A stretch of DNA of 46,704 nt from Verrucomicrobiota bacterium. GTDB lineage: Bacteria; Verrucomicrobiota; Verrucomicrobiia; Chthoniobacterales; JAFAMB01. The stretch covers positions 1-46,704 of the forward strand of contig JAFAIO010000109.1 of NCBI GenBank assembly GCA_019236675.1, given 5' to 3'. The translations under genes and the position numbers were made by a program. Below the pieces are notes generated by a model. The model was not told where the DNA came from. It did not search any database and saw nothing but the letters and a program-made list of their open reading frames with translations. Shown in pieces: positions 3,828 to 42,480 of this stretch (its first letter is position 1; each line of letters opens with the position of its first letter).

Positions 3828-3997
3828 GTAATCAGTAATCAGTAATCAGTAATCAGTGGTCGTTGGTCGGGGACAAATTCCCGCCTTGGGATAAAAAGCT
3901 GCGGTGGTCTTGGTCGATCCCGGTGCTGCCTGGCGTCCTCAAGGCCATTACGGCCGGTTTTTTTGATCTGATTACTGACCTACTGATTACTGATTAA
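3828..3997. repeat. intergenic hairpin element E1 with tandem-heptamer arms (GTAATCA)
   Basis: The left arm is GTAATCA x4 (3828..3855). The right arm is the inverse complement TGATTAC units, imperfect (3969..3997). They flank about 110 bp of unique sequence between mglA and exbB. Confidence 0.9.
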
Positions 3998-4030
3998 CCT
4001 GGTCCATCCCAAAACAGCTTGGCATCTCAC

Positions 4031-4675
4031 TCACGCCGTCCCCGCCGTAGCGCGTTCCCTAGGCGGCGCGGGTCGGAGAAGGTGATTTTCCTGGATGAAC
4101 TTGTTCAAGACGCTTTGAGTCACGGCGTCTAATGCAGCGAACACGCTGCGCCCTTTGGTCGCTACCGCTTCGTAGCTTCGTGCGCGCCGCCGCCGGTTGT
4201 TCAGCAAAAATTCCAAATACGACACCGGCGCTGCATCCGGCAAGTCACGTTTATTGTACTGCAGAACATACGGAATCTCGTCCAACGAGAGATGCTGTTT
4301 GCGAAGGTTTTCCTCAAGATTACGAAAACTTTCCACGTCTTCATGGATCTTGTCCCAGTGCGAATCGGCCACAAATACGATGCCGTCTACGCTGCGTAAC
4401 ACTAACTGCCGGGTCGTGTTATAAACTACCTGTCCCGGGACGGTGTAGAGCTGGAACTTGGTTTTGAAGCCTTGCAGGATAACTGCGTCAACCGGCAAGA
4501 AATCAAAAAAGAGAGTGCGGTCAGCTGCGGTGGCTAAGGATACCAAATCCCCTCGAAACGCAGCAGGCAACCTCGAATGGATATAGGCAATGGTAGTGGT
4601 TTTGCCACTCAGCGCCGGTCCGTAATAGACGATCTTGAACTGAATCTCTTTGCTCGCGTAATTTATGATCGGCAT
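4031..4675 (-). CDS. mglA: MglA-type Ras-like small GTPase
   Basis: 214 aa. N-terminus INYASKEIQFKIVYYGPALSGKTTT (P-loop), TVPGQ (switch II) and NKRD (G4). All are characteristic of the gliding/polarity GTPase MglA. Confidence 0.85.
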   Translation of the reverse strand: MPIINYASKEIQFKIVYYGPALSGKTTTIAYIHSRLPAAFRGDLVSLATAADRTLFFDFLPVDAVILQGFKTKFQLYTVPGQVVYNTTRQLVLRSVDGIVFVADSHWDKIHEDVESFRNLEENLRKQHLSLDEIPYVLQYNKRDLPDAAPVSYLEFLLNNRRRRARSYEAVATKGRSVFAALDAVTQSVLNKFIQENHLLRPAPPRERATAGTA

Positions 4676-4698
4676 TCGCCAAACTTCCTTGGTTCTTG

Positions 4699-6363
4699 CT
4701 AACCGCAGATATGGCTGAGAACCAGACAGATCTTCTCACGCACCCCTGGCTTGAAGGGCCTCTTTTCGTGACGCACGACGAAACCGGATTCACCGCGGGC
4801 GAAAACGCTGACCAGTTCTCGCTTCCAACCGAGCGTAACGGTTTCGATCTGGCCAAAGCCCAAATTCTCGACACGCTGCCCAACCTCCTGGGTGAGGCTG
4901 GAAAGCAATTGCACCGATGATTGAGTAAGCCCGAGCTTTTCGGGTTCGCCTTCGAGGCTGCCATCTGCCCCAAAAAAGAGGGCAGAGTTTATCCCCGGAA
5001 GCTCACCGATTTTTTGAACAACCTTGTTCAAATCCAATGCTTCATCCGTTAAAAATAGAGACTGCAGTGCCGAAAAATTAGGCGCAGGTTTCGGTTCAGC
5101 GGTTAGTTTTTGCTCTGAGACTGTTTTTTCCGGAGCTTCTTGCTTTTCCTCGGCGACAGGAGCTTCCTGCGACGCAGGTTGTGGCAATTCGCTCGGTGTT
5201 GTCGGGTGTTCGATCAGCTCCAATTGATGACTGTCGGTGGCCACCTTCTCGGATTCAGCCGCTTCCGGAGCGTGGGCAAGACGCTCGGTATCTTCTTTGG
5301 CTGGACCGGTAAAAGGAGTCGAGATTGCTGGCAAAACTTCTTCCGGTTCTTGATCTGCTCGCGGACGTAGCAGATCCTGCGGATAATCTTGCAAGATTTC
5401 TTTCACCGGAACGGCAACCTCTGCAGCCGTATCGGCTTGCGGAAAATGGCTTCTTACGTCTTCCGGTAAGGACTTTAGCAAAGTCGAAAAAGGGATCGTT
5501 ACTCTTCCGTTTGCCAGCTGAGAATTAATTAACTCCAATGGAAGTTCAATGGCCGCGCCGGGCTTATTGGCCAGGGCATTGGGGTCCGAGGGTTGCAGCT
5601 CAGGTGGAAGACTTTTGATGATTGGTCCGAGTGCCACGCGCACGGTTTTCGGAACTTCAGAGCCGTTTCGGGCCGCTCCGCCCAAAGTCGTTTCATCTGG
5701 CTTCTCGGGGCCGGGACCCGGTTGGGTTTCGCTCACCAATTGTCCTGCCGGTAAGGGCGTCAACCGATCGGGAACGGTACCTGGCTCTCGAGTTTCCGTT
5801 GGAGTAACTGCTGTCGATTCGCCATGTGCTGTCGCGGTTGGGCTCGTCGTCTGTTCACCTGGGTCCGCTAACCGTGACTTTTCCCAAGCCGGGAGATTAA
5901 ACTCTAGAGTGCGTTGATCCAGGGGAGCAATTGGCACCGAGAAGATTTCTGGGCACGACCCAAAAAGGGTAGCGAAAGTAACCTTAGCGGTCTGGTGCGC
6001 TTCATCGATTTCCAGCGATTTCCGAGGAATCTGCACCCGACGTTTTGGGTCAATATCGATATTAGATTTGGTTACTTCCGGCGGTAGTTGCAACAGCAGG
6101 ACTTGCAATGGTACATCCACGGTTGCCCGTACTGGGCGGCGGAACCCTTCTTTGGGTGCAGCGCTAGACTCGGCTGGCGATGTCGATTTCAAGCGACTTC
6201 CAGGGACTGTTTCCCGGAGACGGGGCGGCGGTACGCGCGCAGATTGAAATGGAGGAACTTCGGCGCCACCATGCGCTTCTGGAGATTCATCCGAGCCCTT
6301 CAGCTCCAATTCATCCTGCTCTGATTTATCTGATTTCGACCTGAACCAAGAGAAAAAAGACAT
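4699..6363 (-). CDS. long Pro/Glu-rich protein with C-terminal roadblock/LC7 (MglB-like) domain
   Basis: 554 aa. The last about 115 aa (LDLNKVVQKIGELPGINSALFFGADGSLEG...GFGQIETVTLGWKRELVSVFARGESGFVV) fit the roadblock/LC7 pattern of MglB. The stop lies 23 nt upstream of mglA. Two internal related modules are present (VPLQVLLLQLPPEV... and VALGPIIKSLPPEL...). Confidence 0.55.
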   Translation of the reverse strand: MSFFSWFRSKSDKSEQDELELKGSDESPEAHGGAEVPPFQSARVPPPRLRETVPGSRLKSTSPAESSAAPKEGFRRPVRATVDVPLQVLLLQLPPEVTKSNIDIDPKRRVQIPRKSLEIDEAHQTAKVTFATLFGSCPEIFSVPIAPLDQRTLEFNLPAWEKSRLADPGEQTTSPTATAHGESTAVTPTETREPGTVPDRLTPLPAGQLVSETQPGPGPEKPDETTLGGAARNGSEVPKTVRVALGPIIKSLPPELQPSDPNALANKPGAAIELPLELINSQLANGRVTIPFSTLLKSLPEDVRSHFPQADTAAEVAVPVKEILQDYPQDLLRPRADQEPEEVLPAISTPFTGPAKEDTERLAHAPEAAESEKVATDSHQLELIEHPTTPSELPQPASQEAPVAEEKQEAPEKTVSEQKLTAEPKPAPNFSALQSLFLTDEALDLNKVVQKIGELPGINSALFFGADGSLEGEPEKLGLTQSSVQLLSSLTQEVGQRVENLGFGQIETVTLGWKRELVSVFARGESGFVVRHEKRPFKPGVREKICLVLSHICG

Positions 6364-6583
6364 GATACGATCGCCTTTACAATAACATGCCTGCGGGAGA
6401 TGGCTTTATATTTTTATCTTGCTTTTTCCGATTTTTCTACCTGAAAGAAGCGGTAACCTCAAAACATCGGCATCGGAAACCGCAATAGGTACGTTCTGCT
6501 TCTTCCGCCGATACCAATTACCAACACGACCGATTGGACACCGTTAGGTGCCATCAGTCCCGGGGCTAGCGGCGCTCCCGGCG

Positions 6584-7348
6584 TTACATCAGGGGCGAGA
6601 CATACAACTTCATCGCGGATACCAAACCTCCGTCGTAGTACCAGCTCCGATCGAAATAGAAACTTCGGTCCGATGCCTGATAACGTAAATGCACCACTTT
6701 TTCGGGCTGGTTCACGTCGCAGACAAAGAATAGGAGATCGCCGTTTGCCTGAGTCTCATAACGGTACGCTACTAAGCAATGGTTGATCGGTCGAAACCGC
6801 GTGATATAGACGCCTTCGATATCGCCAGCGTCAAGCCGTTGACGTAACCATTGCGCAAAATGTTCTTGGCCGGACCGCGGAGCAGGGAATACAATCCGCC
6901 AGTTGCCGACTCGCCAATATCCCGGCCACCAGCCCCCGAGGTTTTTTTGCAACATCAGGGTATAGTCTGCGGAGAATCGGTTAAGATTTGGGTATCCGGG
7001 AAAGACGATTTTCTTGGCCGGACCGGCGCTCCACGGCGCATACTTAATTAATTCGTGGACCCGTTGCCGATAGCCTTCTTCGTTCAGTTTCGGAAGCTTA
7101 GGATCGAACTCCGCGAACTGATAGAACTGCAGGATCGAGCGAACCAAAGCAAAGCAGTGTCGCGAATAATCGGGGATGTTACCGGGGTTCCGGCGATGGG
7201 CGGTAATGTGGCCTGATTGATCCGGCCGATAATCGAAATACAGATTATTCGAGAAAGAGAACGTGTCTTGAGGAAAACGAAATGGGCCTTCCTTCGCAAT
7301 TAAAGAGGTGAATGCCCCGAGCCATAGAAAAACGATTAGAATTCGCAC
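6584..7348 (-). CDS. hypothetical secreted protein
   Basis: 254 aa with a signal peptide (MRILIVFLWLGAFTSLIAKEG). I recognise no family motif. The start directly abuts the rpoN stop. Confidence 0.6.
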   Translation of the reverse strand: MRILIVFLWLGAFTSLIAKEGPFRFPQDTFSFSNNLYFDYRPDQSGHITAHRRNPGNIPDYSRHCFALVRSILQFYQFAEFDPKLPKLNEEGYRQRVHELIKYAPWSAGPAKKIVFPGYPNLNRFSADYTLMLQKNLGGWWPGYWRVGNWRIVFPAPRSGQEHFAQWLRQRLDAGDIEGVYITRFRPINHCLVAYRYETQANGDLLFFVCDVNQPEKVVHLRYQASDRSFYFDRSWYYDGGLVSAMKLYVSPLM

Positions 7349-8755
7349 CTAAAACTGTTTTCGCAGATTGCTGGGAAGAATGTTTAGCTCGGCCCTGTAC
7401 TTGGCGACGGTCCGACGCGCTATTGGGATACCCCGTTCTGATAGGATTTCCACAATTTCTTTATCGCTCAGCGGCATGCGATTATCCTCATTGCGGACGA
7501 GATCCGCGATGGTTTCCTTAACGCTGGTATTACTTAAAGCGACGCCGTCATTCGTTTGATAGCCTGGGGTGAAGAAGAACTTCATTTCTACAACCCCTTG
7601 CGGCGTCGCGATGTACTTGCCCGAGATTGCCCGGCTGACTGTGGTCTCGTGTACGCCGACTGCGTCCGCAATTTGCACCATAGTCATCGGTTTCAGAAAC
7701 GCCGTTCCAAAATCCAGAAAATCGCGTTGCCGTTTGACGATCTCAATTGCGATATTGAGTATGGTTTGTTGCCGTTGGTGGATGCTCTTTATCAGGAACT
7801 TTCCGCTCCTGATTTTCTCTCGGATGTAGTCTCTGACCTCGCCTCCGTTACGGCTTTGCGTCATCAGATCCCGATATGTTTTATTGATCCTTAGGTGCGG
7901 GATCTGATCGCCGGTGAGCGAGACCACGTACTCATCGCCGACTTTTTCCACCACCACATCCGGTAGTACGTAGCTATTGGGCTCCGGAGAAAAAATCTGA
8001 CCTGGCTTTGGGTCAAGAGTTGCTATGAAATTGGCGGCTTTTTGTACCTGATCGACCGTTACCCCAAGGCGTCTCGCGATGTCCGGATATCGCTTACGGC
8101 CCAGGTCGTCCAGATACTGGTCGACGATCTGGTATTCGAGGCTCTGCGCTTTACCGAGTCGCCGCAACTGGATGAGCAGGCAATCTTTTAGGTCTCGCGC
8201 GCCAACCCCAACCGGATGGAAGGTTTGCACCAATTCGAGGGCCTCCTGAAGGTCTTCAATCGGCGTACCAGAAAGATTTGCGATCTCGTCCAATGGAGCC
8301 GAGAAGAAACCGATATCATCGATATTTCCGATCAGGAGTTCAGCCGCTCTTCGCTTCTTCGCGCCGATATCGGCGGTGTTCAGCTGCTCCAGGAGGTGTT
8401 GCTGGAGCGTTTCCTGGTTCGCGAGAGAGTCGAGGAAAAACTGGCGTCGCTCTTCGTCCTCCTGGCTTCGCGCAGAATAAGAGACATTCTGAGCCATATA
8501 ATCTCGCCATTCTTCATCCAGTTTTGCCAGCTTCTCGAATTCTTCCTGGAAGTCAGCTTCATCAGATGAACGATCCTCCGTCTCATGAACGCTCGGGTCT
8601 TCTTCCAGGACTGGGTTCGTTTGAAGCTCTTGTTGAACGATATTCTTGAGCTCCAGGGTGGCCGCCTGCAGAATTTGCAGACTTTGCTGTAGCTGCGGAG
8701 CAAGAACTTGCTGCAGTCCTAACCCTTGTATCTGTTGCATTCCTGGGCCGGGCAT
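7349..8755 (-). CDS. rpoN: RNA polymerase sigma-54 factor
   Basis: 468 aa with a Gln/Leu-rich region I (LQQSLQILQ). The C-terminal HTH and RpoN box are present (ARRTVAKYR). Confidence 0.95.
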   Translation of the reverse strand: MPGPGMQQIQGLGLQQVLAPQLQQSLQILQAATLELKNIVQQELQTNPVLEEDPSVHETEDRSSDEADFQEEFEKLAKLDEEWRDYMAQNVSYSARSQEDEERRQFFLDSLANQETLQQHLLEQLNTADIGAKKRRAAELLIGNIDDIGFFSAPLDEIANLSGTPIEDLQEALELVQTFHPVGVGARDLKDCLLIQLRRLGKAQSLEYQIVDQYLDDLGRKRYPDIARRLGVTVDQVQKAANFIATLDPKPGQIFSPEPNSYVLPDVVVEKVGDEYVVSLTGDQIPHLRINKTYRDLMTQSRNGGEVRDYIREKIRSGKFLIKSIHQRQQTILNIAIEIVKRQRDFLDFGTAFLKPMTMVQIADAVGVHETTVSRAISGKYIATPQGVVEMKFFFTPGYQTNDGVALSNTSVKETIADLVRNEDNRMPLSDKEIVEILSERGIPIARRTVAKYRAELNILPSNLRKQF

Positions 8756-8863
8756 AAATTGAGCGTGACTGAATAGTAGGAGAGTGGCACAGAAACTGCA
8801 AGGGATCGCTGGGAGAACTGTAGCGTATTGATTCCCAGGTAGTTAGGGAGTGTGCCGGCTAAT

Positions 8864-9237
8864 GGGCGATACGGCAAATGAGCGAAACGGCGAAAATTGG
8901 TGGGGCGAGGCTCCCGAACGGCATAATAGGTTTCGCTGGAATTTCGCGTGTTATACCCCAGCGTTTGGTTGGGTTGCACGCTGCCGAACCGCGGTTCCAA
9001 CGATAGCCACCGCCAGAGATACCCTAGGATGTGGCATCGTTTTTGGCGCGCCGCTATTGAGGGGGAATTTGGGGCATGTCCCGTCACGGGAGCGGCTCGG
9101 CGGCGTGCATCCTAACCGATCGATGGTCATGCCATACCCTTCCCTCCGGACAGCGCTTTTAGCCGTTCGTGGAGCCTCGCCCCACCAAACTTGTCGCCGC
9201 GTCGCCCCTTCGCCGTTTCGCCAATACGCCCACTCGC
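8864..9237. repeat. MITE-like element E12 with about 60-nt terminal inverted repeats
   Basis: Left arm 8864..8922 reads ..AATGAGCGAAACGGCGAAAATTGGTGGGGCGAGGCTCCCGAACGGC. Right arm 9162..9237 is its imperfect reverse complement (GCCGTTCGTGGAGCCTCGCCCCACCAA...CGCCGTTTCGCC). The inner segment is about 240 bp. The core TTGGTGGGGCGAGGCTCCCG recurs at about 12889..12908. Confidence 0.8.
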
Positions 9238-9238
9238 A

Positions 9239-10123
9239 TCACTTCCCCTCGTCCGCGTTCCCCGGTTCATCGACCCGGTCAGTGGTATCAACGATTTCGT
9301 CCGCGGGACACCCCAGCTTGATTAGTCCGTAGGTCAAAAGCGTTTTGCTATCGACCCAGATGCCGGGTTTATCGGTATGAAGAACTACTGAGATCACTTC
9401 ATGGCCGCCGCGTAAGGCTGAGCTCACTAACACTTGCTGAGCGGGCCGCGTGTAACCGGTTTTCAGTCCGTTACAGCCGGCGAAGTGCCGAAGCAAACGA
9501 TTGTGATTACGCAGCTCTTCAACTTGGCCGTTTGGGGTTCTCCAAGTGTAATAGATAGTCGAAACGATCTGACGGAATAGCGGTTGTTGCATTGCTGCGC
9601 GAGCGATCAATACCAGGTCATGTGCCGTCGTGTAGTGGTTGGGATCGTGTAGTCCATGTGGATTAACGAAATGGCTGGAGGTCGCCCCTAATTCAGCCGC
9701 TCGCAAATTCATCTTTTCTGCGAACGCGGGAACCGAACCGGCGTTGTCTCTTGCCAGGCACATGGCAACGTCGTTGGCGCTTTTTAGCAGCATGCCGAAC
9801 AGGAGTTGGCGCCGCGTGAATTGTTGGCCGGGCTTAAGATCAAGGCTGCTAGGTTCGACCTTAGTATCTTCCAGAGCCACCGTCACCAATTGCTCAAGAT
9901 TACCGGCCTCGATCACGATCAGGGCCGTTAAAATCTTCGTGGAGCTCGCCGGATACTGTTTAGCGTCGGGATTCTTAGTGTACAGAAACTCCCCGGAATA
10001 CGAATCTACCAACGCTGCGCTTTGAGCAGCTAAGGGCAAATCCTGAGATCTCGCGCCTTGCGCCAGGAGGACCAGCAAAGCCGCGACGATTAGGGCACCG
10101 GTTTTCCGTCGACTATCATCCAT
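9239..10123 (-). CDS. D-alanyl-D-alanine carboxypeptidase (S11, PBP5/6-like)
   Basis: 294 aa with a signal peptide. It has the SxxK (SSTK), SxN (SAN) and KTG (KTGYT) motifs. Confidence 0.9.
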   Translation of the reverse strand: MDDSRRKTGALIVAALLVLLAQGARSQDLPLAAQSAALVDSYSGEFLYTKNPDAKQYPASSTKILTALIVIEAGNLEQLVTVALEDTKVEPSSLDLKPGQQFTRRQLLFGMLLKSANDVAMCLARDNAGSVPAFAEKMNLRAAELGATSSHFVNPHGLHDPNHYTTAHDLVLIARAAMQQPLFRQIVSTIYYTWRTPNGQVEELRNHNRLLRHFAGCNGLKTGYTRPAQQVLVSSALRGGHEVISVVLHTDKPGIWVDSKTLLTYGLIKLGCPADEIVDTTDRVDEPGNADEGK

Positions 10124-11310
10124 AATACGTCGTCGCGGTAATTAATGATCTCCTCGTAAATGCTCCGGTAACCGCCGCGAGAAGGAATGCTGATAGCATC
10201 TGCCAAGTATCCGGGCCTTATCTGAGCTAATGAATGCTCTAAACCAATTGCGCGCGCGGGCTTCACCGTAACCATTTCTAGCAGTTCCTTCGGGCTGACG
10301 AAACCATGATTTCGGGCCGCCATTCGCATTTCCGAAAATAAATTCAAAGAATCGTTGCTGGCCAAGCTATCGGTTCCGAGACAAAGGTTGATGCTTCGTT
10401 CTCGCAATGCTTGCATTGGGAACGGCCGGTGATGAAGGAACCGGTTACTCTTGGGGCAATGAACGATCGAAAGAGACCGCCATTCGTCCCGGTCGAGAAT
10501 CTTGAGGTCTGCCTCATCCAGTTCGTTCATATGAACGAGCAAAGCGTCCTTTGGCAAGAGGCCGGACAACGCCAACGATCGGAAAGGGGAGAGCCGGCCG
10601 CAATCGGACATAGGCCGGCCCATTTTGCTCAAGAAATCGAAAAGATCGCCTTTCCCCGCGGCAAACATCTCGTACTCCGAGGCCGATTCTGAGAGGTGAG
10701 TTGTGAACGGCATTTTGAAATTGTGTGCGACTGCCAATGCCGCTGAATAGAGCTGAGCCGATGCAGTGTAAGGTGCATGGGGGCTTAGGCCGAAGCCACC
10801 TAGCCAATCGCTCGGCTCAAAAAATACCCAAGATCCAAAGGCGTTTTCATCGATCCAGGGACGCGGTCTTATGTCGATTAGTTCCAGGAAAAACCATGTT
10901 CGGATGCGAGGCGGTGCCAAGCGCGGCAGAATCTGAGGAGTAGCTACAATATTGAAGACTGAGGTGACTCCGGAGCGTCGCAGCTCGGCGAACCCCAGAT
11001 CCATGGCTTTGAGGTAGTCGTCATCGCTGAGGGACCGTTTCAACGCGTTGATTCGGCTAATCCACTGAGGGAAATTTCGGGACGGTAAAATGCTGCCGCG
11101 AAGCGAGCTGTAATCCAGGTGGCAATGCGCGTTGATCAATCCCGGTAGAACGATGCATTCGCCAAGATTGACAAATTCGCCGGGGTACTTTTCTAGCAGT
11201 TGAGACGCGGGTCCGGCATCGACGAAACGGTTCTTTTCCACCGCGAAAGCCCCGTTCTCAAGCGGCTCACCGTCCATCGTGACGAGCCAGCGGCACCGGT
11301 ATAGCGTCAT
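10090..11310 (-). CDS. amidohydrolase-family protein (chlorohydrolase/deaminase-like)
   Basis: 406 aa. Metal-binding HxH (NAHCHLDYS) near the N-terminus and GTDSLASN near the C-terminus give a typical metallo-dependent hydrolase layout. Confidence 0.8.
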   Translation of the reverse strand: MTLYRCRWLVTMDGEPLENGAFAVEKNRFVDAGPASQLLEKYPGEFVNLGECIVLPGLINAHCHLDYSSLRGSILPSRNFPQWISRINALKRSLSDDDYLKAMDLGFAELRRSGVTSVFNIVATPQILPRLAPPRIRTWFFLELIDIRPRPWIDENAFGSWVFFEPSDWLGGFGLSPHAPYTASAQLYSAALAVAHNFKMPFTTHLSESASEYEMFAAGKGDLFDFLSKMGRPMSDCGRLSPFRSLALSGLLPKDALLVHMNELDEADLKILDRDEWRSLSIVHCPKSNRFLHHRPFPMQALRERSINLCLGTDSLASNDSLNLFSEMRMAARNHGFVSPKELLEMVTVKPARAIGLEHSLAQIRPGYLADAISIPSRGGYRSIYEEIINYRDDVLWMIVDGKPVP

Positions 11311-12020
11311 TTTGAGTGAACCTTGACGATTTTCCGGGCCTCGGCCACAAAGAGATTGCAGGCCTCAACACAAAGAAATGGAACATGGTAGGACTTCGGC
11401 GAGCTCAATCGAGCCGGTGGGTCTTCCTCTCTTCCGTCTTCCGAGTGCTTCTGGTGGCGTTCCGCGACTTGATCCGCTTGCGGGTCAAACTTAGAGCGGG
11501 GCAGATATTTTTCGGGGGCTTTCCCGTCGATTGTCCAAAGGATCGTCCGAAGACAGCCTGAATGAGACTGGCAGAACCGGCCGGCTAATTCTTCAGCTTG
11601 TAACCCGGTCAATCTCTGAGTGACCCGGTACATCCCGGTTTGTCGGGTAAGGGTTTGTCTCAGATCGACCGGGGTAATCTCGCCGCGGTTAAATGCGAGC
11701 CAGGTGGAGAATGCGCCTGGATAGAAATAATCGATCGCTTGCCGGACCTCAGAAACCGACTCGAGGCGTAGTTCCCATCCGGTACTCAAGCTCGGGGCGC
11801 CTTTGAGAGCCCGGTAATTTCCTTGTTCGTCGTACCGGACGATTTCGAGAGCCGCCGTCGCGTCGATTCCAACCGCGAGCTTTCGCTGCGATTCGTCATC
11901 TTTCCAATGCCGGATCAGAAAACGTCCGGGTTCAACCTCCCTAACCACGAGCTCCCCGAGATGGATCGGACCGCTGCGTAAGCGTTCCTGAAGCAGTTGT
12001 TCAATCATGCTGTTTATCAA
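11307..12020 (-). CDS. conserved hypothetical, DR2241-like protein (tentative)
   Basis: 237 aa, translationally coupled between cbiX and the amidohydrolase. It has Cys residues in the C-terminal half (CQSHSGC, CVEAC). The family assignment is from memory of CbiX-linked DR2241-type proteins and is not verified. Confidence 0.4.
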   Translation of the reverse strand: MINSMIEQLLQERLRSGPIHLGELVVREVEPGRFLIRHWKDDESQRKLAVGIDATAALEIVRYDEQGNYRALKGAPSLSTGWELRLESVSEVRQAIDYFYPGAFSTWLAFNRGEITPVDLRQTLTRQTGMYRVTQRLTGLQAEELAGRFCQSHSGCLRTILWTIDGKAPEKYLPRSKFDPQADQVAERHQKHSEDGREEDPPARLSSPKSYHVPFLCVEACNLFVAEARKIVKVHSK

Positions 12021-12810
12021 ACCGATCGACGGTATCCAGAATGATGTCTGCCATCATCGGGTCTGTCCCGATCGCGCCCGCATAATAAAGTTTACGATTG
12101 CGGAGTGCGTAGGGGTTATGCCGAAAAACTTCTTGTTGGCTCGCCGGAGCGGAATTCTCGTTCTGTATTCCAAGCAACACCGGAATATCCTGGTAACTGT
12201 GCAGACCGTCCGAAATGAAGAAGGGGACGACAACTACATGACTCTGAGTGGTTAGATTCGCCCAGTCCGATATCTCGGGTGGCTCTTCCATAAAGGCAGC
12301 AACAACCTCCGGATAGATCCCTCGATCTCGGATCGCTGCGACCTGGCGTTTCGCGGCCACAGCCGAATTTTCGTTCAGGCCTGTGCCGTGAGCGACAATG
12401 ACGAGGCTGGTATCGTGAGGCGGCGCATCACAGGCAACTTCGGCCGCCCGATGGAGCAACAGATCTGTCATTCGGGGATCGTTGCCCACTGGGTCGCAAT
12501 ATTTAAGGGTCCGATGGTTCTTGATAGTGATTGGTCCGTTCAATTCCAATTCTCGTGGGATCACTTTCGCCGTAAAATAACCTTCACTGATGAAGTTGGG
12601 AACTATGTAAACGTCTTGTGCTTCCACCATTCTCAGTACTTCCCGCAGGCTCGGCTCTTCTTTCCAAAAAGCGCAGTGTACCTCAGAGAATATGCGGCGG
12701 GCTCGAATCTCATTCGCGTGAACAAACGTCGGCAAGCTCGAGTCCGGGTTTATGGTTGAACCATGACCAACCAAAACCAAGGCGCTGTTTTCTCTACTGA
12801 GGTAAGACAC
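12001..12810 (-). CDS. cbiX: sirohydrochlorin chelatase, CbiX-type (two-domain)
   Basis: 269 aa with two tandem CbiX halves. Each begins with (L/I)V(G/A)HG(S/T): LVLVGHGST and LVIVAHGTG. Confidence 0.8.
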   Translation of the reverse strand: MSYLSRENSALVLVGHGSTINPDSSLPTFVHANEIRARRIFSEVHCAFWKEEPSLREVLRMVEAQDVYIVPNFISEGYFTAKVIPRELELNGPITIKNHRTLKYCDPVGNDPRMTDLLLHRAAEVACDAPPHDTSLVIVAHGTGLNENSAVAAKRQVAAIRDRGIYPEVVAAFMEEPPEISDWANLTTQSHVVVVPFFISDGLHSYQDIPVLLGIQNENSAPASQQEVFRHNPYALRNRKLYYAGAIGTDPMMADIILDTVDRFDKQHD

Positions 12811-13072
12811 TTTTTAACCGTCTGATGGGCTGGCCGTGGCCTCAACCGAAAAGTTGGTCCGGACGTGGCTGCGGGATGACCCCTAGCTTGGTGGGGCGAG
12901 GCTCCCGTATAACCCAACGATTTCTACGAAGAACAGAGGTGCGGGTGACTAGTGGTTTTGCTAGGCCAAAGCGCGCGCCGAGCGGGGTTACATGTCGATC
13001 TTTGCCCACCGCTTTCGAGGACGAGAACGAGCGGCGTTCTGGAGAGCGGGAGCTATCTGCACTGCACTCTTC

Positions 13073-13822
13073 TCAAAACAAACTCGTTACCTTCGGATCT
13101 GGTAGGCCCCAGGCTTGCCAGTGGGCCAGATATTCGTCTCTTGGCAGGCAGACATAATGAGGCTCGCCGGCTGCGCGCAACCATTTCACGAGTGTCACCA
13201 AATCCGATTCGGCCATGGTCGTGCAACCCGCTGAAGGTCGGGCCGGTCCGCGTCGTATGTGAAAGAAGATCGCGCTTCCAAATCCCGGCACCGGCGGATC
13301 AGAATTGTGTCGGATCTCAATCAGCCAGTGATACGCGAAATCTCCCAATCGCATTTTAGCCTTGTTGTACCAGGGTGGTGGGTTGCGGGGATCAATCACC
13401 ACATGCTGGTTATAGTAAGGGCTATTCAAATCGTCGACCCAGGTGTCTGCAGCTGTCACCGTATGAAATGGATAATCTGCACCTGACGGTAAGGCGTGAT
13501 CGTAGGTATAAATGACCCCAATTTTGAACACCCCGGCCGGGGCGCGATTGTCTCGCTCGACCTTTTCTGGGCCTCCTCCTGAACCGATGATCTCGCCTCG
13601 ACCCCAAGCTAGGCCATTCTTACCAAAGAGAACTCTGATCGGTGGAGTGGTTTGGGTCCAGGTATCGCCATTCTTCTGCAGAAGCTGCATTTCGCCGGTC
13701 ATCGAGTTCCAGTCCGGGGCGATACCAACGATCAGTTGCGAGACTGAAGAATCGAGACGAGTCGCCGCCGATGCCGGTTGCAAGCAGCACACAAAAATTA
13801 CGAGCAAAGCTAGCCTTTTCAC
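13073..13822 (-). CDS. L,D-transpeptidase (YkuD) family protein
   Basis: Active-site-like FFHIRRGPARPSAGCTTM (His...Cys of the YkuD fold). ORF 13073..13918 starts inside hairpin element E2. GTG 13822 gives a clean signal peptide (MKRLALLVIFVCCLQPASA). Confidence 0.7.
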   Translation of the reverse strand: MKRLALLVIFVCCLQPASAATRLDSSVSQLIVGIAPDWNSMTGEMQLLQKNGDTWTQTTPPIRVLFGKNGLAWGRGEIIGSGGGPEKVERDNRAPAGVFKIGVIYTYDHALPSGADYPFHTVTAADTWVDDLNSPYYNQHVVIDPRNPPPWYNKAKMRLGDFAYHWLIEIRHNSDPPVPGFGSAIFFHIRRGPARPSAGCTTMAESDLVTLVKWLRAAGEPHYVCLPRDEYLAHWQAWGLPDPKVTSLF

Positions 13823-13871
13823 GCGCCCGAGATTTTTAGGAGGGATTCGGTCTCGGAGCAAGCGGAAGCTC

Positions 13872-14001
13872 GCCTGAGGCGCGCTTCCGAATAGCAAATA
13901 GCAAATAGCAAATAGCAAATGCGTCGCGAAACCGAGCGACGAAACGCTCGATAATTTGCTATTTGCTATCTGCTATTTGCTATTCGGTGACGCGCCTCAG
14001 G
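13872..14001. repeat. intergenic hairpin element E2 with tandem-heptamer arms (AATAGCA)
   Basis: GCCTGAGGCGCGCTTCCG-(AATAGCA)x4 pairs with (TTTGCTA-type)x4-CGGTGACGCGCCTCAGG. The stem is about 50 bp and the apical hairpin is CGAGCG-ACGAAA-CGCTCG. It lies between the M23 peptidase and L,D-transpeptidase genes, both on the same strand. Confidence 0.9.
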
Positions 14002-14005
14002 TGAG

Positions 14006-15055
14006 TCACCGCTGCAGCCCGCAAACCAGGCTGACGTATTGGTTTCCTTCCTGTGAGAGAACATAATCTGATCCATGGTTCCTGATTACGCCCTTGGTCA
14101 GCAGATGCTGAGGGAAAGGCGAAGAATGGACCCAGGTCAAAGTCGGCTGGGTCACGTGTTCGCTGGAGCCGCGGACCTTAAGCGGCAAGCCTGTCCGGTC
14201 GAAACTGATCTCACTGCTAGGGACATCCGTTTCTCCTTCTAAAAGCCAAGAATATCGATCGGTCAGATCCATTCGCGGAGATACCGGGACCAGGACTTTG
14301 TACCAAGGCTCTCCTTGTTGGACGAAGGCAGCCACGGTCTGGTTTGGATTCTTTTGAAGCTCAAGATAAAACCGGCCGATATCGATACCTGCCAGATTAA
14401 TCCCATTGTAGATACCGTGGCGGTTGATATCCGCAGCATGGTGTCCGGGGAACCATTCAGAAAAATGGGAGTTTAAAAGCAGGTTCAGCTCCAGATGGAC
14501 ATGGGCCCGTTCCCTGTCGATCCCTTCCCCCGTATGACCCATGATCGCGATGGGCGAACCTTGATTTACTGAGTCGCCAATGTTGACAGTGATGCTGTTC
14601 AGATGCGCGTAAAGGCTGTAGTAAGGGAAACCGTCAAGGTGGTGTTCGATGACCACATACCGGCCGTAGTTCGAGCTTCCTGCGACTGGATTGGCGTAAA
14701 CAACGGTTCCGCCGGCAATCGCGTGGATGATATCTTGTGGCTCGCCGGCAGCATCCCTGTGGAGGGGTCGGATATCAATCCCCTCGTGAAATCGGGTGTA
14801 GATGACTTGCGATCCGATGCGTCTGGGGTTTCGGACGAAACCGTACTGGCCGCCTTCCCACGCTTGGCTGATTTGACCCTCGAAGTCACGCTGAACATAT
14901 TGATAGAACCCGGCGAAATTGCCGGTCAAAAGGCCGTCGTTCTCCGTTGGCAATATCAATTTAGGAGGTTCAGCCTTGGCCATGGTACCAGCTAGGACGA
15001 GCCAGATCGTTAAACAGAACAGCCTGGTTCTAAAGTTAAACGGCGTCCAAATCAT
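14006..15055 (-). CDS. M23-family metallopeptidase
   Basis: 349 aa with a signal/anchor sequence. It has the HxxxD (HEGIDI) and HxH (HVHLE) motifs of LytM/M23 peptidases. Confidence 0.85.
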   Translation of the reverse strand: MIWTPFNFRTRLFCLTIWLVLAGTMAKAEPPKLILPTENDGLLTGNFAGFYQYVQRDFEGQISQAWEGGQYGFVRNPRRIGSQVIYTRFHEGIDIRPLHRDAAGEPQDIIHAIAGGTVVYANPVAGSSNYGRYVVIEHHLDGFPYYSLYAHLNSITVNIGDSVNQGSPIAIMGHTGEGIDRERAHVHLELNLLLNSHFSEWFPGHHAADINRHGIYNGINLAGIDIGRFYLELQKNPNQTVAAFVQQGEPWYKVLVPVSPRMDLTDRYSWLLEGETDVPSSEISFDRTGLPLKVRGSSEHVTQPTLTWVHSSPFPQHLLTKGVIRNHGSDYVLSQEGNQYVSLVCGLQR

Positions 15056-15140
15056 ATTCGGTCTCGTGTATTTGGCTTCTTTGGGAGCGACACTGTTATA
15101 GAGGATAGAATTTGCAACCGGGAAGCCCTTTCGCTAAACG

Positions 15141-15692
15141 GTGCAGATGCATTTCCGCCTTAGGACGTTAAGTCTGCTCCTACTCGCCTTCACTGCGTGC
15201 TCTTCCCAGAAGATCTATCGCTGGGTCCCATTTGTAGGGCCGAAGCCTGAGCGCCCGGGGGCGGTTCCGAATGCTGCCAAGGTTGAGAAAGGCAACCCGT
15301 TCGGTCCAATTACGGGGACGGTGGCTTACGGACTAGAAATGCGGGTAATATTGACGCCCGACGCAATCAAACTGCCGGATACCAGATCGTTTGAAGCCCG
15401 CATTGTCCTGATCAACCGAACCAAAAAAGCGGTGACGCTCTCATTCAACGATAGCCGCGAATATGACTTTCTCCTCCGGGATGCGAATGGGAAGAAACTC
15501 GTCCAATGGACGGATGACCAGCCGGTCACGCAAAATCCGGCTTATGTGATCGTGAATCCCGCTGAACGATCGGAGTTTGTCGGCACTATCTCAACCCGGG
15601 ATATGGTCCTTGGGCGCCCGTACGTGCTGGAAGCGTCTGTTGTGGGTTACCCGAAGTTGACGACGACGATCAACCTTACGCCGCAGAAGTGA
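15141..15692 (+). CDS. lipoprotein, BsuPI-like putative proteinase-inhibitor domain (tentative)
   Basis: 183 aa with a lipobox (LLAFTAC). The beta-rich domain has LSFNDSREYDFLLRDANGKKLVQWTDDQ, reminiscent of the BsuPI family. It is divergent from the M23 peptidase gene. Confidence 0.45.
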   Translation: MQMHFRLRTLSLLLLAFTACSSQKIYRWVPFVGPKPERPGAVPNAAKVEKGNPFGPITGTVAYGLEMRVILTPDAIKLPDTRSFEARIVLINRTKKAVTLSFNDSREYDFLLRDANGKKLVQWTDDQPVTQNPAYVIVNPAERSEFVGTISTRDMVLGRPYVLEASVVGYPKLTTTINLTPQK

Positions 15693-15735
15693 GGAGCTGG
15701 AATCTAATAGCTGGTAGCTAGCTCCTAGCTCCTCT
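15692..15735. terminator. short hairpin E3 of the GGAGCTA-repeat type between convergent genes
   Basis: GAGGAGCT (15693..15700) pairs with AGCTCCTC (15728..15735). The sequence GGAGCTGGAATCTAATAGCTGG resembles the arms of E4 and E5. It overlaps both stop codons. Confidence 0.5.
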
Positions 15736-16459
15736 TCCACAGGCTCGCTTGCGCTACGCTCCATTGAAACTTTCGGGCGTGCTCGCGGATCAGGAATGGC
15801 AGATCTTTAGCGGTAACTAGAACCAGATCAGGCTCCAAAATCTCTTGGATCCGGCTCAAGGTGGTGACGCTAGCACCTGCGAGCCAGTTTTCGCTCGGGG
15901 TAAACTCCTCGAGCCAAGTGTAAGGGGAGGCCAGGATGACGTGTCCATTCGATCTCAGCAAACGCTTAATTTCCCCCAACAAATCTACGGGTCGAGACAC
16001 CCGATCGATCAGGTTGGCTGCCAGAATCAGGTCAAAGCTCCCCAATTCCGGCGAAACCCGCAGGGCATCCCCTACGAAGAATCGGCATTTGGAGCGGTCA
16101 ATCTCGGGATCCAGCCGGCGAGTGACAACCGTTGACCGTCGGCCCTCCTCAAGGATCCGAATCTGTACTTTTCCAGCCTCCTGGATGGCTTGAGCTGCCG
16201 CAATGAATTGGCCGGAAAGGTCAATCCCGATGACTTCGTCGGCCCAATGGGTCAGCTCAAAAGTCGATCGGCCGACGGCGCACCCTAGATCGAGAGCGCG
16301 CGTTTTCCGCCCGATGTCCGGCAGAAAGTCGGTTACGCAACGAGATGGATAAAAGAGTGCATCTCGAGGCCCAAACGAATAGGGAACTTGATCTTCCGCT
16401 GTTCCGTAGTGAAAAAGCAGATACTGATTTAGCAGAAGATCTGTTTCGTAAATGTTCAT
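15725..16459 (-). CDS. class I SAM-dependent methyltransferase (OvoA C-terminal / putative 4-mercaptohistidine N1-methyltransferase-like)
   Basis: 244 aa with SAM motif I (LDLGCAVGRSTFEL). The N-terminal YETDLLLNQYLLFHYG signature is what I recall from the ovoA_Cterm family. Confidence 0.65.
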   Translation of the reverse strand: MNIYETDLLLNQYLLFHYGTAEDQVPYSFGPRDALFYPSRCVTDFLPDIGRKTRALDLGCAVGRSTFELTHWADEVIGIDLSGQFIAAAQAIQEAGKVQIRILEEGRRSTVVTRRLDPEIDRSKCRFFVGDALRVSPELGSFDLILAANLIDRVSRPVDLLGEIKRLLRSNGHVILASPYTWLEEFTPSENWLAGASVTTLSRIQEILEPDLVLVTAKDLPFLIREHARKFQWSVAQASLWKRS

Positions 16460-16546
16460 GGCGGAATAGATCCTCCGTGCGGCATCAGCTGCGGCACGGC
16501 TCCCAAACTAGCACCGATGGGACTTATTAGACCTGCCGATAACCCA

Positions 16547-17710: not shown

Positions 17711-18113
17711 AATGAGAGCGTTTTTGTTTCTGTTTTAGTTACACACGCCGCAAACCCTGCGTAGCGCAAGATGATTCTCGGCATCCAGAATCAACTCCTC
17801 CGGAGGCCTTGTGTCGGCTCTGGCATAGTAGGTTCTTCACTGTCAGCCTTATGTCAGGAGAGTTAGGGGCAGAGATTTATTCCTTCGCGATCGATCCGCT
17901 CAGTCTGCGGGCGCCCAGCCTGCAAAAGGAACGTAGCGGCCGTAATCGTCCTCGTCGTCGTCCTCGACTGTGGGTGTGTAGAGTCTCTTAGCGAGCCCAT
18001 GTCTCCGCTTGGATCGTCGGTTAGGTCAGCGAGTTGATAGGAATGGCGTAGCTTTATCTCCGGTCGTCACGTCCCATTAGTCCCATGAGTCTCATCCGTG
18101 CGCTGGCCACTGA

Positions 18114-19019: not shown

Positions 19020-19090
19020 GTTAGGATTAGCGCGGTATTCGGTGCGACTACTGTTTCTGGCCGGTAACAGCGCGGGGCGCGAGTAAAAAG

Positions 19091-27872: not shown

Positions 27873-27887
27873 GAGGAGCGAAAAATA

Positions 27888-28076: not shown

Positions 28077-29896
<1,820 letters not shown>

Positions 29897-30062: not shown

Positions 30063-30216
30063 TGAGCACGGGAGTACGCGGCGAGAGTCCGTCACTCCAG
30101 ACTCCAGAGCAGATGCCCGAATGACCGGAGTGGGAATTTCTCCGCAGCCTGCTCAAAAGGACGCAGTTCGCGGATTTGGGTTCTGCACGTGTAGATTTCG
30201 GCTGAGTCCTGCAACG

Positions 30217-30312
30217 AATGGGACTTATGGGACTAATGGGACTTATGAGTTAAAGCGTACTCCTACTTAGGAGTGAAATTACATAAGTCCTATGGGTCCC
30301 ATGAGTCTCATC
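30217..30312. repeat. intergenic hairpin element E7 with tandem 9-mer arms (ATGGGACTT)
   Basis: Left arm AATGGGACTTATGGGACTAATGGGACTTATGAG. Right arm ACATAAGTCCTATGGGTCCCATGAGTCTCATC. The central small hairpin is ACTCCTA-CT-TAGGAGT. A solo arm copy (GTCCCATTAGTCCCATGAGTCTCATCCGT) lies at about 18070..18098. Confidence 0.85.
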
Positions 30313-30378
30313 CGTCCGCCTTCCCTTTCACGTTCCTCCTCGGAAAAACGTGCTATTACCCCTGGCTATTCGTCCCCC

Positions 30379-34397: not shown

Positions 34398-34610
34398 CAC
34401 CACAGAGACACAGAGGACACGAAGTTAGATCGCAAAAAAAATTCAAAGGTAGACAGGGTTCTAGTCCTCGTCCTTCGCGATCTTTGCGACCTTGTTGTGC
34501 CGGTGCGTCTCCGTTTGAGTCTCCCAAGTTCATTTGCACAACGATCGCCAAAGATCACAGGACACAAATCCATCGCTTCTTACTCTCTGTGACCTCTGTG
34601 CCTCCGTGAT
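34398..34610. repeat. intergenic hairpin element E8 with CACAGAG-type arms, inside the infB-rbfA junction
   Basis: Left arm CACCACAGAGACACAGAGGACACGAAG (34398..34424). Right arm TTCTTACTCTCTGTGACCTCTGTGCCTCCGTGAT (34577..34610). A nested inner inverted repeat is GATCTTTGCGACCTTGTTGTGC / GCACAACGATCGCCAAAGATC. Confidence 0.85.
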
Positions 34611-38434: not shown

Positions 38435-38653
38435 AATAGCCGCAAAAGAACACAGCGCAAGGAACGCAAAAGAAGCCCTCGGATGGACACAGATTCACGC
38501 AGATTTGAGAGCTTCCAACGAGGCGAAGCGACTGCGAATGCAGATCAACGCAGAACGTTCCCGCGCGTTCCCAGCGTTCCCGCCGTAGGCCTTGCGGATG
38601 CGGATCCACTCGCCGTATTTTTTTTGCGTTCCTTGCGTTCTTTTGCGGCTATT
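38435..38653. repeat. intergenic hairpin element E9 (GCGTTCC/GCAAAAG-type arms)
   Basis: The left arm AATAGCCGCAAAAGAACACAGCGCAAGGAACGCAAAAGAA is the inverse complement of TTTTTTTTGCGTTCCTTGCGTTCTTTTGCGGCTATT (38618..38653). The inner part is rich in the short repeats ACGCAGA and GCGTTCC. It lies between divergent nusA and a HAD hydrolase gene. Confidence 0.85.
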
Positions 38654-41086: not shown

Positions 41087-41167
41087 CCCAGTCCCTTTTT
41101 CAACTGGGCCAGGATTGTCGCTTCGAAGTACGCTGGTGGCACTTCGAGATGTTGACCGAAACTCTGG

Positions 41168-41626
41168 TCAGGCTAAGCGCATGGACCGCGTGGGTGGATG
41201 TGTCGGCATGGTGATCGCTAGCTGGGTGGGCGGGTGCGTCGGCATGGTGATCGCTAGCTGGGTGGGCGGATGCGTCGGCATGGTGATCGCTAGCTGGGTG
41301 GGCGGATGCGTCGGCATGGTAATCGCTAGCTGGGTGGGTGGATGCGTCGGCATGGTGATCGCTAGCTGGGTGGGCGGATGCGTCGGCATGGTGATCGCTA
41401 GCTGGATACTGTCACCCGCTGGTTGCCAGAGATGCATAGCAAAGCCGCCGTCTGTTTTTTTAGAGCCCGTTGTTTCTGTTGGTCTAAAAGTCCTAACGTC
41501 TTTCGGAACCGATTCATCCTTGCGGATAAATTTGCCGGTTTCGCGACCCAGATCGGGCATCGCATTGGCGGATGCCAGCGAGAGAGCACTAGATAGTAAG
41601 AGAGCAGTCAAGTGAAATACTTTCAT
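41168..41626 (-). CDS. secreted protein with six C-terminal 12-aa tandem repeats (QLAITMPTHPPT)
   Basis: ATG 41626 gives a good signal peptide (MKVFHLTALLLSSALSLASANA). The opposite strand is also open through the repeat but lacks a plausible N-terminus. Confidence 0.5.
   Translation of the reverse strand: MKVFHLTALLLSSALSLASANAMPDLGRETGKFIRKDESVPKDVRTFRPTETTGSKKTDGGFAMHLWQPAGDSIQLAITMPTHPPTQLAITMPTHPPTQLAITMPTHPPTQLAITMPTHPPTQLAITMPTHPPTQLAITMPTHPPTRSMRLA
41188..41403. repeat. 36-bp tandem repeat x6
   Basis: Unit GGGTGGGCGGATGCGTCGGCATGGTGATCGCTAGCT. The six head-to-tail copies have 0-3 substitutions each and no spacers. Confidence 0.95.
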
Positions 41627-41974
41627 AAAATCAGCCAATACGTTCTTTCCATGCAAGCCGCACGGAAAAAGCGCGAGTGCGTTGCCAGTTTTTGGAAACC
41701 GTTTGCAGTCACTATGGCTAGGCTAGTGAGCATGAGGGACCTAAGCCTTAAAACTTGGATTGGGACTGCTTAATTCAAGCGTCTTGGGGGTCCGATTGGG
41801 TAACCGCGAAATACTCCCACGCCGATAACTCCCATCATCCAATCACCGCTCCAATACTCCGTTACTCCATCACTCCGCGCCGCGATTTTGATGACGAGGT
41901 CGATTGCGAGGCGCATGACGCGCTGGTCGCTGCTGTAACCCGGTCGCCGCCCCTACGTTTAAAGCTTTGTAGAT

Positions 41975-42181
41975 ATGAAAAGAATACTTATTGCGCTTTC
42001 GGTGTTGATTGCGGCACTGACGTTTTGCCCGAAACCAGCCGATGCAGGGGTTGTAGTAGTCTTCAGAGGACCTGGATTTTATGGTCCGGGATACTACTGG
42101 GGACCAGGTGGATACGCCTATTACGCACATCCTTACTGGCATCGCCGGTACTGGTGGCACAGCCACTGGTGCTATCGGTAA
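41975..42181 (+). CDS. small secreted Gly/Tyr/Trp/His-rich peptide
   Basis: 68 aa with a signal peptide (MKRILIALSVLIAALTFCPKPADA). The 44-aa mature part is GVVVVFRGPGFYGPGYYWGPGGYAYYAHPYWHRRYWWHSHWCYR. A strong terminator follows. Confidence 0.6.
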   Translation: MKRILIALSVLIAALTFCPKPADAGVVVVFRGPGFYGPGYYWGPGGYAYYAHPYWHRRYWWHSHWCYR

Positions 42182-42260
42182 GGCGCTCTTTCGCGTACCA
42201 GAGCCCCGCAACCTGCGAGCGAAATCTCTACCGTAATTTCATAACAAAATCATAACCACG

Positions 42261-42293
42261 TTGGGCAGGCTTGCGCCTGCCCAATGTTTTTTT
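42261..42293 (+). terminator. rho-independent terminator
   Basis: TTGGGCAGGC-TTGC-GCCTGCCCAA forms a perfect 10-bp stem, followed by TGTTTTTTT. Confidence 0.8.
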
Positions 42294-42480
42294 CGCGAAA
42301 GCGTCTCGAGCGCGAAGGTAAGGAGTGATGGAGCAACGGAGTAATGGAGTAATGGAGTGCACCCCGCTACGCGCCCTTATTTTGGTTAAATAGATTCGTC
42401 TTTGTGGCCTTTGCGTTCTTCCTGTTTAAGTTCCCTCTTTTTCACCATTTGTCCGTTGTTGCGGCAATTTCTAAAAGGCC

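Follow-up and report, generated by a model that had tools for sequence, protein, structure and literature searches.

The 46,704-nt contig JAFAIO010000109.1 of a Verrucomicrobiota bacterium (assembly GCA_019236675.1), analysed here over its full length and called the window, carries in its intergenic spacers long hairpins whose arms are built from short tandem repeats. The explanation that we prefer, with a probability of about 0.6, is that these hairpins belong to several lineage-specific, mostly non-coding families of foldback-type palindromic repeats, which nest within one another and which include rare copies bearing an open reading frame (ORF) and resembling the intervening sequences of rRNA genes. 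Each family would be defined by a fixed terminal inverted repeat of ~20-35 nt in which a 6-9-nt motif stands 2-5 times in tandem; such elements would accumulate between genes, preferentially just past stop codons, and the apex of an existing hairpin would be the place where new DNA enters or is replaced, such that the same arms come to surround unrelated interiors. An earlier reading made from the letters of the window (the sequence-only reading) had pointed to eleven such loci, E1 to E9, E11 and E12, all of which are present with coordinates that were exact or a few bases off. The architecture it described was also recovered, namely inverted arms of 2-5 tandem 6-9-nt units around 0-445 nt, in every gene-orientation context. 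Its statement that most of the longer spacers hold such an element was too generous, the real count being about half (~12 of the ~22 spacers of at least 80 nt, with corrected gene ends).

The window has a GC content of 54% and encodes sigma-54, GatB, IF-2, an ammonium transporter and a GuaB3-type protein. Its GatB is 82% identical to that of L001, 81% to that of L045 and 79% to that of L002, metagenome-assembled genomes (MAGs) labelled Verrucomicrobiota or Chthoniobacterales (L numbers designate the loci used for comparison), and judging by these identities the window is from a Chthoniobacterales-like verrucomicrobium. As for a cyanobacterial origin (STRR, HIP1), it was considered and rejected, as sigma-54 is present and the palindrome GCGATCGC occurs 3 times against 2.3 expected, which is no enrichment.

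The hairpins are real features of this DNA. An inverted-repeat finder, set to arms of at least 16 nt, at least 80% complementary and separated by no more than 700 nt, returned 16 loci in the window, nearly all of them intergenic, whereas 30 dinucleotide-preserving shuffles averaged 1.8; for loci with at least 20 matched bases the figures were 7 and 0.03. Tandem Repeats Finder placed arrays of period 7-9 within the hairpin arms, and five pairs (E1, E12, E2, E4, and E8) were recovered automatically as inverted tandem arrays with reverse-complementary units. The best-supported arms are those of E2 (60 nt, 87%), E4 (34 nt, 32 matched), E5 (32 nt, 30 matched), E7 (34 nt, 82%) and E11 (28 nt, 93%); E1, E6, E8, E9, and E12 are real, though weaker. 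The predicted fold of E4 reaches -55.9 kcal/mol, with z = -7.85 against shuffles. An independent contig of another assembly (L200) is 99.95% identical to the window across 19654-25117 and reproduces both E5 and the inverted pair at 21275-21559, and therefore the hairpins are not assembly artefacts, an origin that the sequence-only reading had left open; E2 is likewise found at the orthologous site of a relative of 81-86% nucleotide identity. Above its threshold, an Rfam search of the window found only tRNAs and thus no known RNA family at the tandem-unit hairpins, and the window showed no CRISPR-type direct repeats regularly interspaced by unique spacers. The separation of these elements from CRISPR, ERIC and Correia elements, already proposed, held up, and the tandem-unit arms are not REPs of the GTAG type.

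The repeat unit had been thought to be locus-specific, a notion strained from the outset, as E4 and E5 had been listed with one and the same unit and E3 is a degenerate relative of it. The arm common to E4 and E5 is in fact a defined 33-nt terminal inverted repeat, AGGAGCTAGGAGCTAGAATCTAGGAGCTAGGAGG, with an irregular third unit (GAATCTA) and an almost constant number of outer units, 1-2. A scan of metagenome contigs with the 21-nt core of this arm gave at least 119 matching stretches from many soil samples, with a GC content (54.4 +/- 1.0%) like that of the window; counts out of 119 hereafter are among the matches listed. At least six exact copies of the core were present on long contigs of one single sample. 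The interiors of 54 inverted pairs of this GGAGCTA family ranged from 13 to 485 nt, and non-orthologous loci shared only modules of 25-100 nt. Other units of the window recurred in the same collection: GTAATCA dimers at 14/119 loci, often as the outermost layer around GGAGCTA arms, AATAGCA at 8/119, the ATGGGACTT unit dimer at 20/119, usually as an inner layer, and GGCGAAAC at 5/119, while the inner inverted repeat of E12, TTGGTGGGGCGAGGCTCC, was found at 23/119 loci in ~25 paired copies whose interiors measure 150-320 nt. Recurrence far above chance is thus seen for the units of E1, E2, E7, and E12 as well as for the inner arms of both E12 and E5, contrary to the idea that, unlike in other repeat families, the sequence itself is not conserved. 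Nor do the arms reduce to a single known family of REPs or transposable elements of the miniature inverted-repeat kind (MITEs), the outcome that had been named as fatal to the proposal: there are many families and none of them is a named one. Among 80 other Verrucomicrobiota loci, the units of the window were nearly restricted to the nearest relatives, L001 (AATAGCA) and L045 (GGAGTTC), the latter with E6 units also at non-orthologous sites, and other clades have families of their own, such as ATGACGA and CACAAAGG.

The families are nested in each other in an ordered way. GTAATCA arrays often lie just outside the GGAGCTA arms, and just inside there are arms of the GGGCGTAT/GGCGAAAC, CGTAATCG/GACGAG, ATGGGAC, AATAGCA or TTGGTGGGG types; complementary sequence adjoins the GGAGCTA arms on their outer side in 21% of the copies, against 2.8% in controls, and on their inner side in 30%, against 2.7%. 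One orthologous locus could be compared in five related genomes (L094, L096, L097, L101, and L190) whose flanks are 70-88% identical. The outer GTAATCA and GGAGCTA layers were kept in 5/5, and the interiors, of 58 to ~290 nt, were mutually unrelated and held different inner modules; five different interiors within common arms suggest, therefore, that the hairpin centre is the site where DNA is newly inserted or replaced. The pair L118 and L163 has common flanks and arms (the right flank is 100% identical in the alignment) around unrelated interiors of 407 and 105 nt.

Turnover of the same kind involves the elements of the window themselves. L086 is syntenic with positions 4030-17884 at 81-86% nucleotide identity, and its E2 has kept the outer stem and the AATAGCA units, with a replaced centre, different unit numbers and one double change from G:C to T:A. 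Although the flanking genes align, L086 has different modules in the spacers of E3, 16460-16546 and 12811-13072, the last with a GGAGCTA arm in place of the TTGGTGGGGCGAGGCTCCCG end. In the spacer orthologous to that of E3, L045 has a GGAGTTC hairpin and L002 an AGTAGAA hairpin, both at ~70% identity, and L086 has TTGGTGGGG-type modules; L001 has no tandem-unit hairpin there and no spacer whatever at the E2 site, and it carries an AATAGCA-type hairpin in the spacer orthologous to that of E6. Spacer turnover is hence fast both at 81-86% and at ~70% identity. From the order of the layers, the outer ones appear to be the older and the inner ones the younger, and it is at the hairpin centre that change seems to happen.

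In some copies, a minority, the apex holds a small gene. In L175, which is of the same lineage as the window, a gene of 125 amino acids for a four-helix-bundle protein lies between perfect GGAGCTA inverted repeats; its product matches TIGR02436 with E = 4.6e-33, and weakly the Avd protein of diversity-generating retroelements. This divergent gene was found by listing ORFs in the longest interiors and had been missed by tblastn for GxxExxY and four-helix-bundle genes. Inverted arms of tandem units closely enclose every GxxExxY or four-helix-bundle gene in the fetched loci (14/14). Immediately upstream of gatB, the spacer of related Chthoniobacterales is occupied by a GxxExxY / PDDEXK_3 cassette with conserved CACAAAGG-type arms in L003, L006, L007, L008, L017, L036, and L043, and by a cassette of the four-helix-bundle (23S rRNA intervening-sequence) family with other tandem-unit arms in L025, L028, and L033. 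As the GxxExxY genes are 70-77% identical to one another, the insertion appears to be inherited within that clade. Members of the four-helix-bundle family were found between tandem-unit arms in L175, L033, L028, L005, and L018. Copies without an ORF have arms of the same families: L033 and L036 have such copies with ATGACGA and CGGATAC arms, and the arms of E8 in the window resemble CACAAAGG, that is, the arms that bracket GxxExxY genes in related genomes. The ORF-less hairpins of the window would then look like non-autonomous counterparts of cassettes that resemble rRNA intervening sequences and carry either the four-helix-bundle gene or a GxxExxY nuclease of the PD-(D/E)XK type.

If the elements are selfish and mobile, as we suppose, they could spread in two ways: a trans-acting enzyme might read the unit arrays and aim at hairpin tips, or host repair of breaks at hairpin tips might capture other palindromic fragments. 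A bolder version would unite these hairpins and the 23S rRNA intervening sequences in one class of elements that enters the apices of existing hairpins and palindromes, both in rRNA helices and in intergenic DNA, uses its arms as arrays of recognition units and is mobilised by the four-helix-bundle and GxxExxY proteins that some copies carry; we regard this version as tentative and rather improbable. The window has no rRNA, and every copy in it lies between protein-coding genes, none at the tip of a 23S rRNA helix. Apart from orthologous loci there was no recurrent ORF family, such as a parent insertion sequence would provide, in the 628 kb of fetched loci, and no RAYT transposase turned up among those loci, a sample that covers no genome-wide gene set. 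Exchange of whole interiors by recombination between arms was not seen either, as no whole interior was common to two non-orthologous loci in what is a sparse sample.

Several observations weigh against the interpretation as mobile repeat families. Direct repeats of at least 3 nt, as expected of target-site duplications, flank 2.4% of 208 loci, against 2.1% of mismatched controls, with uncertainty in the boundaries lowering the power of this comparison. Neither a transposase nor any other recurrent gene emerged near the elements from ORF clustering of 120 sequences (628 kb), which returned only resampled orthologous loci. No comparison yielded an unambiguous empty site matched to a filled one with defined junctions, which would have been direct evidence of movement, and E9 and E11 have no second copy in the sampled metagenome and Verrucomicrobiota loci. 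The window encodes no GxxExxY or four-helix-bundle gene, and only one of the ~54 GGAGCTA pairs bears an ORF. Insertion at the apex is deduced from the nesting order, and repeated deletion and replacement at the centre would give an identical pattern; the closeness of the arms to the family consensus while interiors change could, moreover, result from host selection on the arm sequence.

That last point leads to the foremost competitor, in which the hairpins are transcript 3'-end structures selected by the host (terminators, insulators separating tandem or convergent genes, mRNA stabilisers or RNase III processing sites, as for E. coli REP/BIME) and their repetitiveness is secondary. As a primary explanation we consider it unlikely, even though the position of the elements agrees well with it. 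The 222 inverted-repeat loci of the window and the metagenome comprise 213 between genes or at contig ends and 9 inside genes, with 104 in tandem, 35 in convergent and 24 in divergent contexts. Loci in tandem contexts lie at a median of 28 nt from the upstream stop codon and 88 nt from the downstream start, the latter distance being biased low because the longest ORFs were used, and 74/104 are nearer to the stop (p = 0.0003); for convergent loci the median lies 20 nt from a stop. The stability of the stems is very high, the window, L045 and L002 all have a hairpin, of one family or another, in the convergent spacer of E3 or its orthologue, and E2 was retained with its compensatory double change. 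Canonical terminators made of a hairpin plus a T-run are not enriched in the window (26 vs 22.3 and 33 vs 24.3 in shuffles), which we likewise count in its favour. Sigma-70-like sites within window positions 1-40000 were fewer than in shuffles (3 vs 10.5 +/- 3.4 in the first half and 7 vs 9.4 +/- 3.8 in the second), a deficit that is clear only in the first half, and the promoters and terminators of this lineage may depart from the E. coli consensus.

Several observations speak against it. Mismatches compatible with G·U on the sense strand numbered 54 against 77 of the A·C type, with no excess, and both arms of the GGAGCTA inverted repeat deviate at 75 positions against 72.9 expected, that is, the arms vary independently, and compensatory changes are not in excess there. 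In these alignments the conserved thing is each arm's sequence and not the pairing. The 24 loci between divergent genes have no 3' end at all to serve, L001 does without such a hairpin at the E3 spacer and without a spacer at the E2 site, and the fixed arms common to more than 100 loci, the nesting and the ORF-bearing copies are all left unexplained. A secondary role of the stems of mobile repeats as transcript 3'-end structures is plausible from their position, with no support from the G·U counts.

Greater conservation of arm sequence than of pairing would also suit an alternative in which the units are arrayed target sites of a protein that binds DNA or RNA, for example a global regulator or nucleoid protein, with the inversion reflecting a dimeric or bridging binder. 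The units do have a constant core with 1-3 variable positions (CAGTRA, TAGCA, ATGGGAC, GGGCG), and the same architecture was interpreted in this manner in Geobacter metallireducens (PMC2700814). We hold this to be very unlikely here, given that at least ten unrelated unit families in one lineage would need as many binders, none of which has a candidate, that families differ between closely related clades, and that positions past stop codons and between convergent genes are unexpected for regulator sites.

An origin in place was implicit in the sequence-only reading: a unit would multiply locally by slippage and reach the other arm through template switching, which would make units locus-specific and unrelated from one locus to the next. 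Unit copy numbers that differ between arms and between orthologues (E2 and its counterpart in L086) and the singleton status of E9 and E11 agree with it. For most families it is contradicted, by identical 33-nt arms at more than 100 loci with even the irregular GAATCTA unit in common, by the nearly fixed number of outer units and by the same units at non-orthologous sites of related genomes, and as a general account it is scarcely tenable. Inverton activity, a recombinase flipping the interior, can be dismissed almost entirely, for although 20-35-nt inverted repeats around intergenic segments of 100-500 nt and one arm sequence at many loci recall it, the interior was in no case inverted between orthologous loci, some interiors (0-13 nt) are too short to flip, many copies lie between convergent genes and no recombinase gene recurs nearby.

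The elements of the window are collected in Table 1, together with REP-like doublets of related genomes. Four of the entries had gone unmentioned in the sequence-only reading: the inverted pair upstream of gatB, the palindrome adjoining E6, the lone left end and the one-sided array.

Table 1. Palindromic and tandem-unit elements of the window, with REP-like doublets in related genomes in the last row.
Element	Position	Strand	Description
E1	3820-4005		GTAATCA-family foldback; left 3827-3857, AGTAATC x4.4; right 3968-3996, CTGATTA x4.0; interior ~110 nt
E12	8856-9237		Outer arms 8856-8895 / 9194-9237 of 8-nt GGCGAAAC-type units
E12 inner element	8897-8914 / 9171-9188		Bounded by inverted repeat TTGGTGGGGCGAGGCTCC
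Lone left end	12888-12910	+	TTGGTGGGGCGAGGCTCCCG inverted-repeat family; in 12811-13072 spacer
E2	13861-14013		Hairpin with 60-nt arms and three layers: unique outer stem, AATAGCA x4.4 arrays 13890-13920 / 13954-13984, 33-nt centre
E3	15691-15734		Loopless, degenerate 44-nt palindrome of GGAGCTA family; below finder threshold
One-sided array	18071-18095		GTCCCATGA x2.8, reverse complement of E7 ATGGGAC unit; in 17711-18113 spacer
E4	19076-19283		GGAGCTA-family foldback; arms 19091-19124 / 19235-19268, 32/34 paired; interior 110 nt; divergent spacer
Inverted pair	21275-21559		30-nt arms 21275-21304 / 21530-21559, no tandem units, around 225 nt; directly upstream of gatB
E5	23121-23341		GGAGCTA-family arms 23127-23158 / 23310-23341; inner GGCGAAAC-type arms ~23160-23182 / ~23279-23309
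Palindrome	27887-27948		Near-perfect, 62 nt, 31-nt arms, 97%; adjoins E6; no tandem units
E6	27951-28076		GGAGTTC/GGAGTTGC-family foldback; right array 28033-28076 x5.2, up to stop codon of 28077-28415 gene
E7	30214-30315		ATGGGACTT-family hairpin, 9-nt unit; arms 34 nt at 82%; centre 34 nt
E8	34398-34610		CACAGAG(R)A arms around ~165 nt; occupies spacer between infB and next same-strand gene
E9	38435-38653		~40-nt arms of GCAAAAG and GGAACGC units around ~145 nt
E11	41822-42359		Arms of 8-nt GGAGTRAY units, 41849-41877 / 42318-42358, around 445 nt
GTAG-tagged REP-like doublets	L002 3762-3848; L007 3936-3999; L033 1386-1987, 12049-12116; L034 9083-9833; L057 4128-4196, 11449-11534		Related genomes

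Some of these elements are intimately joined to the ends of genes. The right arm of E2 includes the stop codon of the upstream gene (14006-14008), and E3 occupies a convergent spacer of 32 nt and provides both stop codons, TGA at 15690-15692 and TAG at 15725-15727 (minus strand). E5 lies in a convergent spacer and begins within a few bases of the gatB stop; it shares one arm with E3 and E4, and its inner arms resemble the arms of E12. The palindrome adjoining E6 is located downstream of the 112-codon gene 28077-28415 and gave the top terminator-like match on the minus strand. The interior of E11 contains an ORF (41975-42181) of 68 codons with a hydrophobic N-terminal stretch; Gly, Tyr, Trp and His abound in its C-terminal half, and a hairpin with a T-run comes after it at ~42253-42297. 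This ORF had no significant family match.

With a relaxed threshold, the sole extra Rfam matches of interest in the window were weak Acido-Lenti-1 hits at the arms of the 21275-21559 pair. Each arm (21273-21318 and 21517-21561) is a small hairpin, with 26.9 and 26.3 bits against a threshold of 37 (E = 0.04-0.05). The pair resembles an inverted doublet of REP-type hairpins and is the sole REP-like element among the pairs of the window. Hairpin doublets of REP-like appearance tagged with GTAG (e.g., TTGTAGGGC... and AAAGTAGC...) occur in the related genomes and form a class separate from the tandem-unit arms.

Two further repeats were noticed towards the end of the window. A tRNA-Lys gene (42616-42688) opens a region, 42616-43311, in which a 333-bp unit is present twice at 94% identity; each copy contains a 3' tRNA part and an ORF of ~80 codons (42712-42954 and 43045-43287) with a GIY-YIG-like N-terminus and a weak match to group I intron endonucleases (E = 0.003), and the second tRNA-like copy (42950-43014) has its anticodon arm replaced. 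At 41190-41405, a 36-nt unit is repeated six times with 95% identity inside the overlapping ORFs 41115-41615 (plus) and 41168-41656 (minus), and one strand translates as 12-residue repeats of VGGCVGMVIASW, the other as 12-residue repeats of AITMPTHPPTQL.

Chthoniobacterales rank with the most abundant bacteria of soils, and in this window modules of the kind described here fill about half of the longer spacers, the content of which turns over far faster than the flanking genes. There are consequences for the assembly of MAGs, in which contig breaks are possible, for the annotation of gene ends, as E2 and E3 supply stop codons, and probably for transcript 3' ends. The nesting order, besides, lets successive events at one site be read off. 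The link between arms and genes offers a testable lead on why four-helix-bundle and GxxExxY proteins form large paralogous families and sit in rRNA intervening sequences; if the hairpins and those sequences were indeed one class, two very large protein families of unknown role would gain a function.

Among known systems, the foldback (FB) elements of Drosophila have long terminal inverted repeats composed of short tandem repeats, a middle that is variable, absent or ORF-bearing, and heterogeneous lengths; they are eukaryotic and make target-site duplications. Inverted arms of short tandem repeats, a variable or absent middle and some copies with ORFs are all present here, but the families in this lineage are many, unrelated and nesting, their arms measure only 20-35 nt with an almost fixed unit number, and neither a target-site duplication nor a dedicated transposase was found. 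Classical MITEs (Correia, ERIC, RUP) are, as here, small, multi-copy, intergenic and non-coding with terminal inverted repeats, whereas our elements have no conserved interior, no target-site duplication and, in the fetched loci, no parent insertion sequence.

REP, BIME and REPIN sequences are dispersed intergenic palindromes near 3' ends that reach tens to hundreds of copies, form hairpin doublets and lack target-site duplications (PMC3116915, PMC3733652), and the insertion of IS1397 into REP hairpin loops, as cited in the reference list of PMC3116915, is a precedent for the targeting of tips. The present elements are likewise dispersed, palindromic, intergenic, near 3' ends and without target-site duplication; their arms, however, are tandem arrays and not self-complementary units of 20-40 nt with a GTAG/CGTC tag (PMC3733652), and their interiors are unconserved. 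The STRR of cyanobacteria and the TAACTGA heptamer arrays of Beggiatoaceae are intergenic, with 2-6 tandem copies of 7-nt units at many loci; almost all of the heptamer arrays are direct (169 sets, with a single inverted one) and keep one orientation upstream of start codons (PMC4679880), unlike the inverted pairs near stop codons found here.

A matching arrangement was catalogued in 2009 in Geobacter metallireducens, so that the earlier remark that no such hairpins had been described was too strong. In that genome TCTCCGTS[Y] is repeated three times in each site of 21 pairs and MTYCTGA five times in those of eight pairs, with variable spacing, and these class 2 and 3 sites are intergenic and were read as putative global-regulator sites of the IHF/HU type (PMC2700814). 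Compared by description, paired arrays of 3-5 tandem 7-9-nt repeats on opposite strands, at variable distance and in multiple copies, are common to both; phylum and consensus units differ, and nesting, turnover and ORF-bearing copies are not described for Geobacter (PMC2700814). What may be new is that the elements nest, that their centres turn over and that they are linked to genes of the intervening-sequence type, in a literature that was not searched for these specifically. As to that link, the intervening sequence of the Coxiella 23S rRNA has a 28-bp terminal stem with an S23p ORF inside, occupies the helix 45 tip, is cut out by RNase III and is regarded as selfish (PMC4990558). The stem of terminal inverted repeats around an optional S23p/four-helix-bundle ORF, known from the rRNA intervening sequences of Coxiella, Leptospira and Salmonella, recurs in L175, but the elements of this lineage are placed between protein-coding genes, are mostly devoid of ORFs and have arms made of tandem units.

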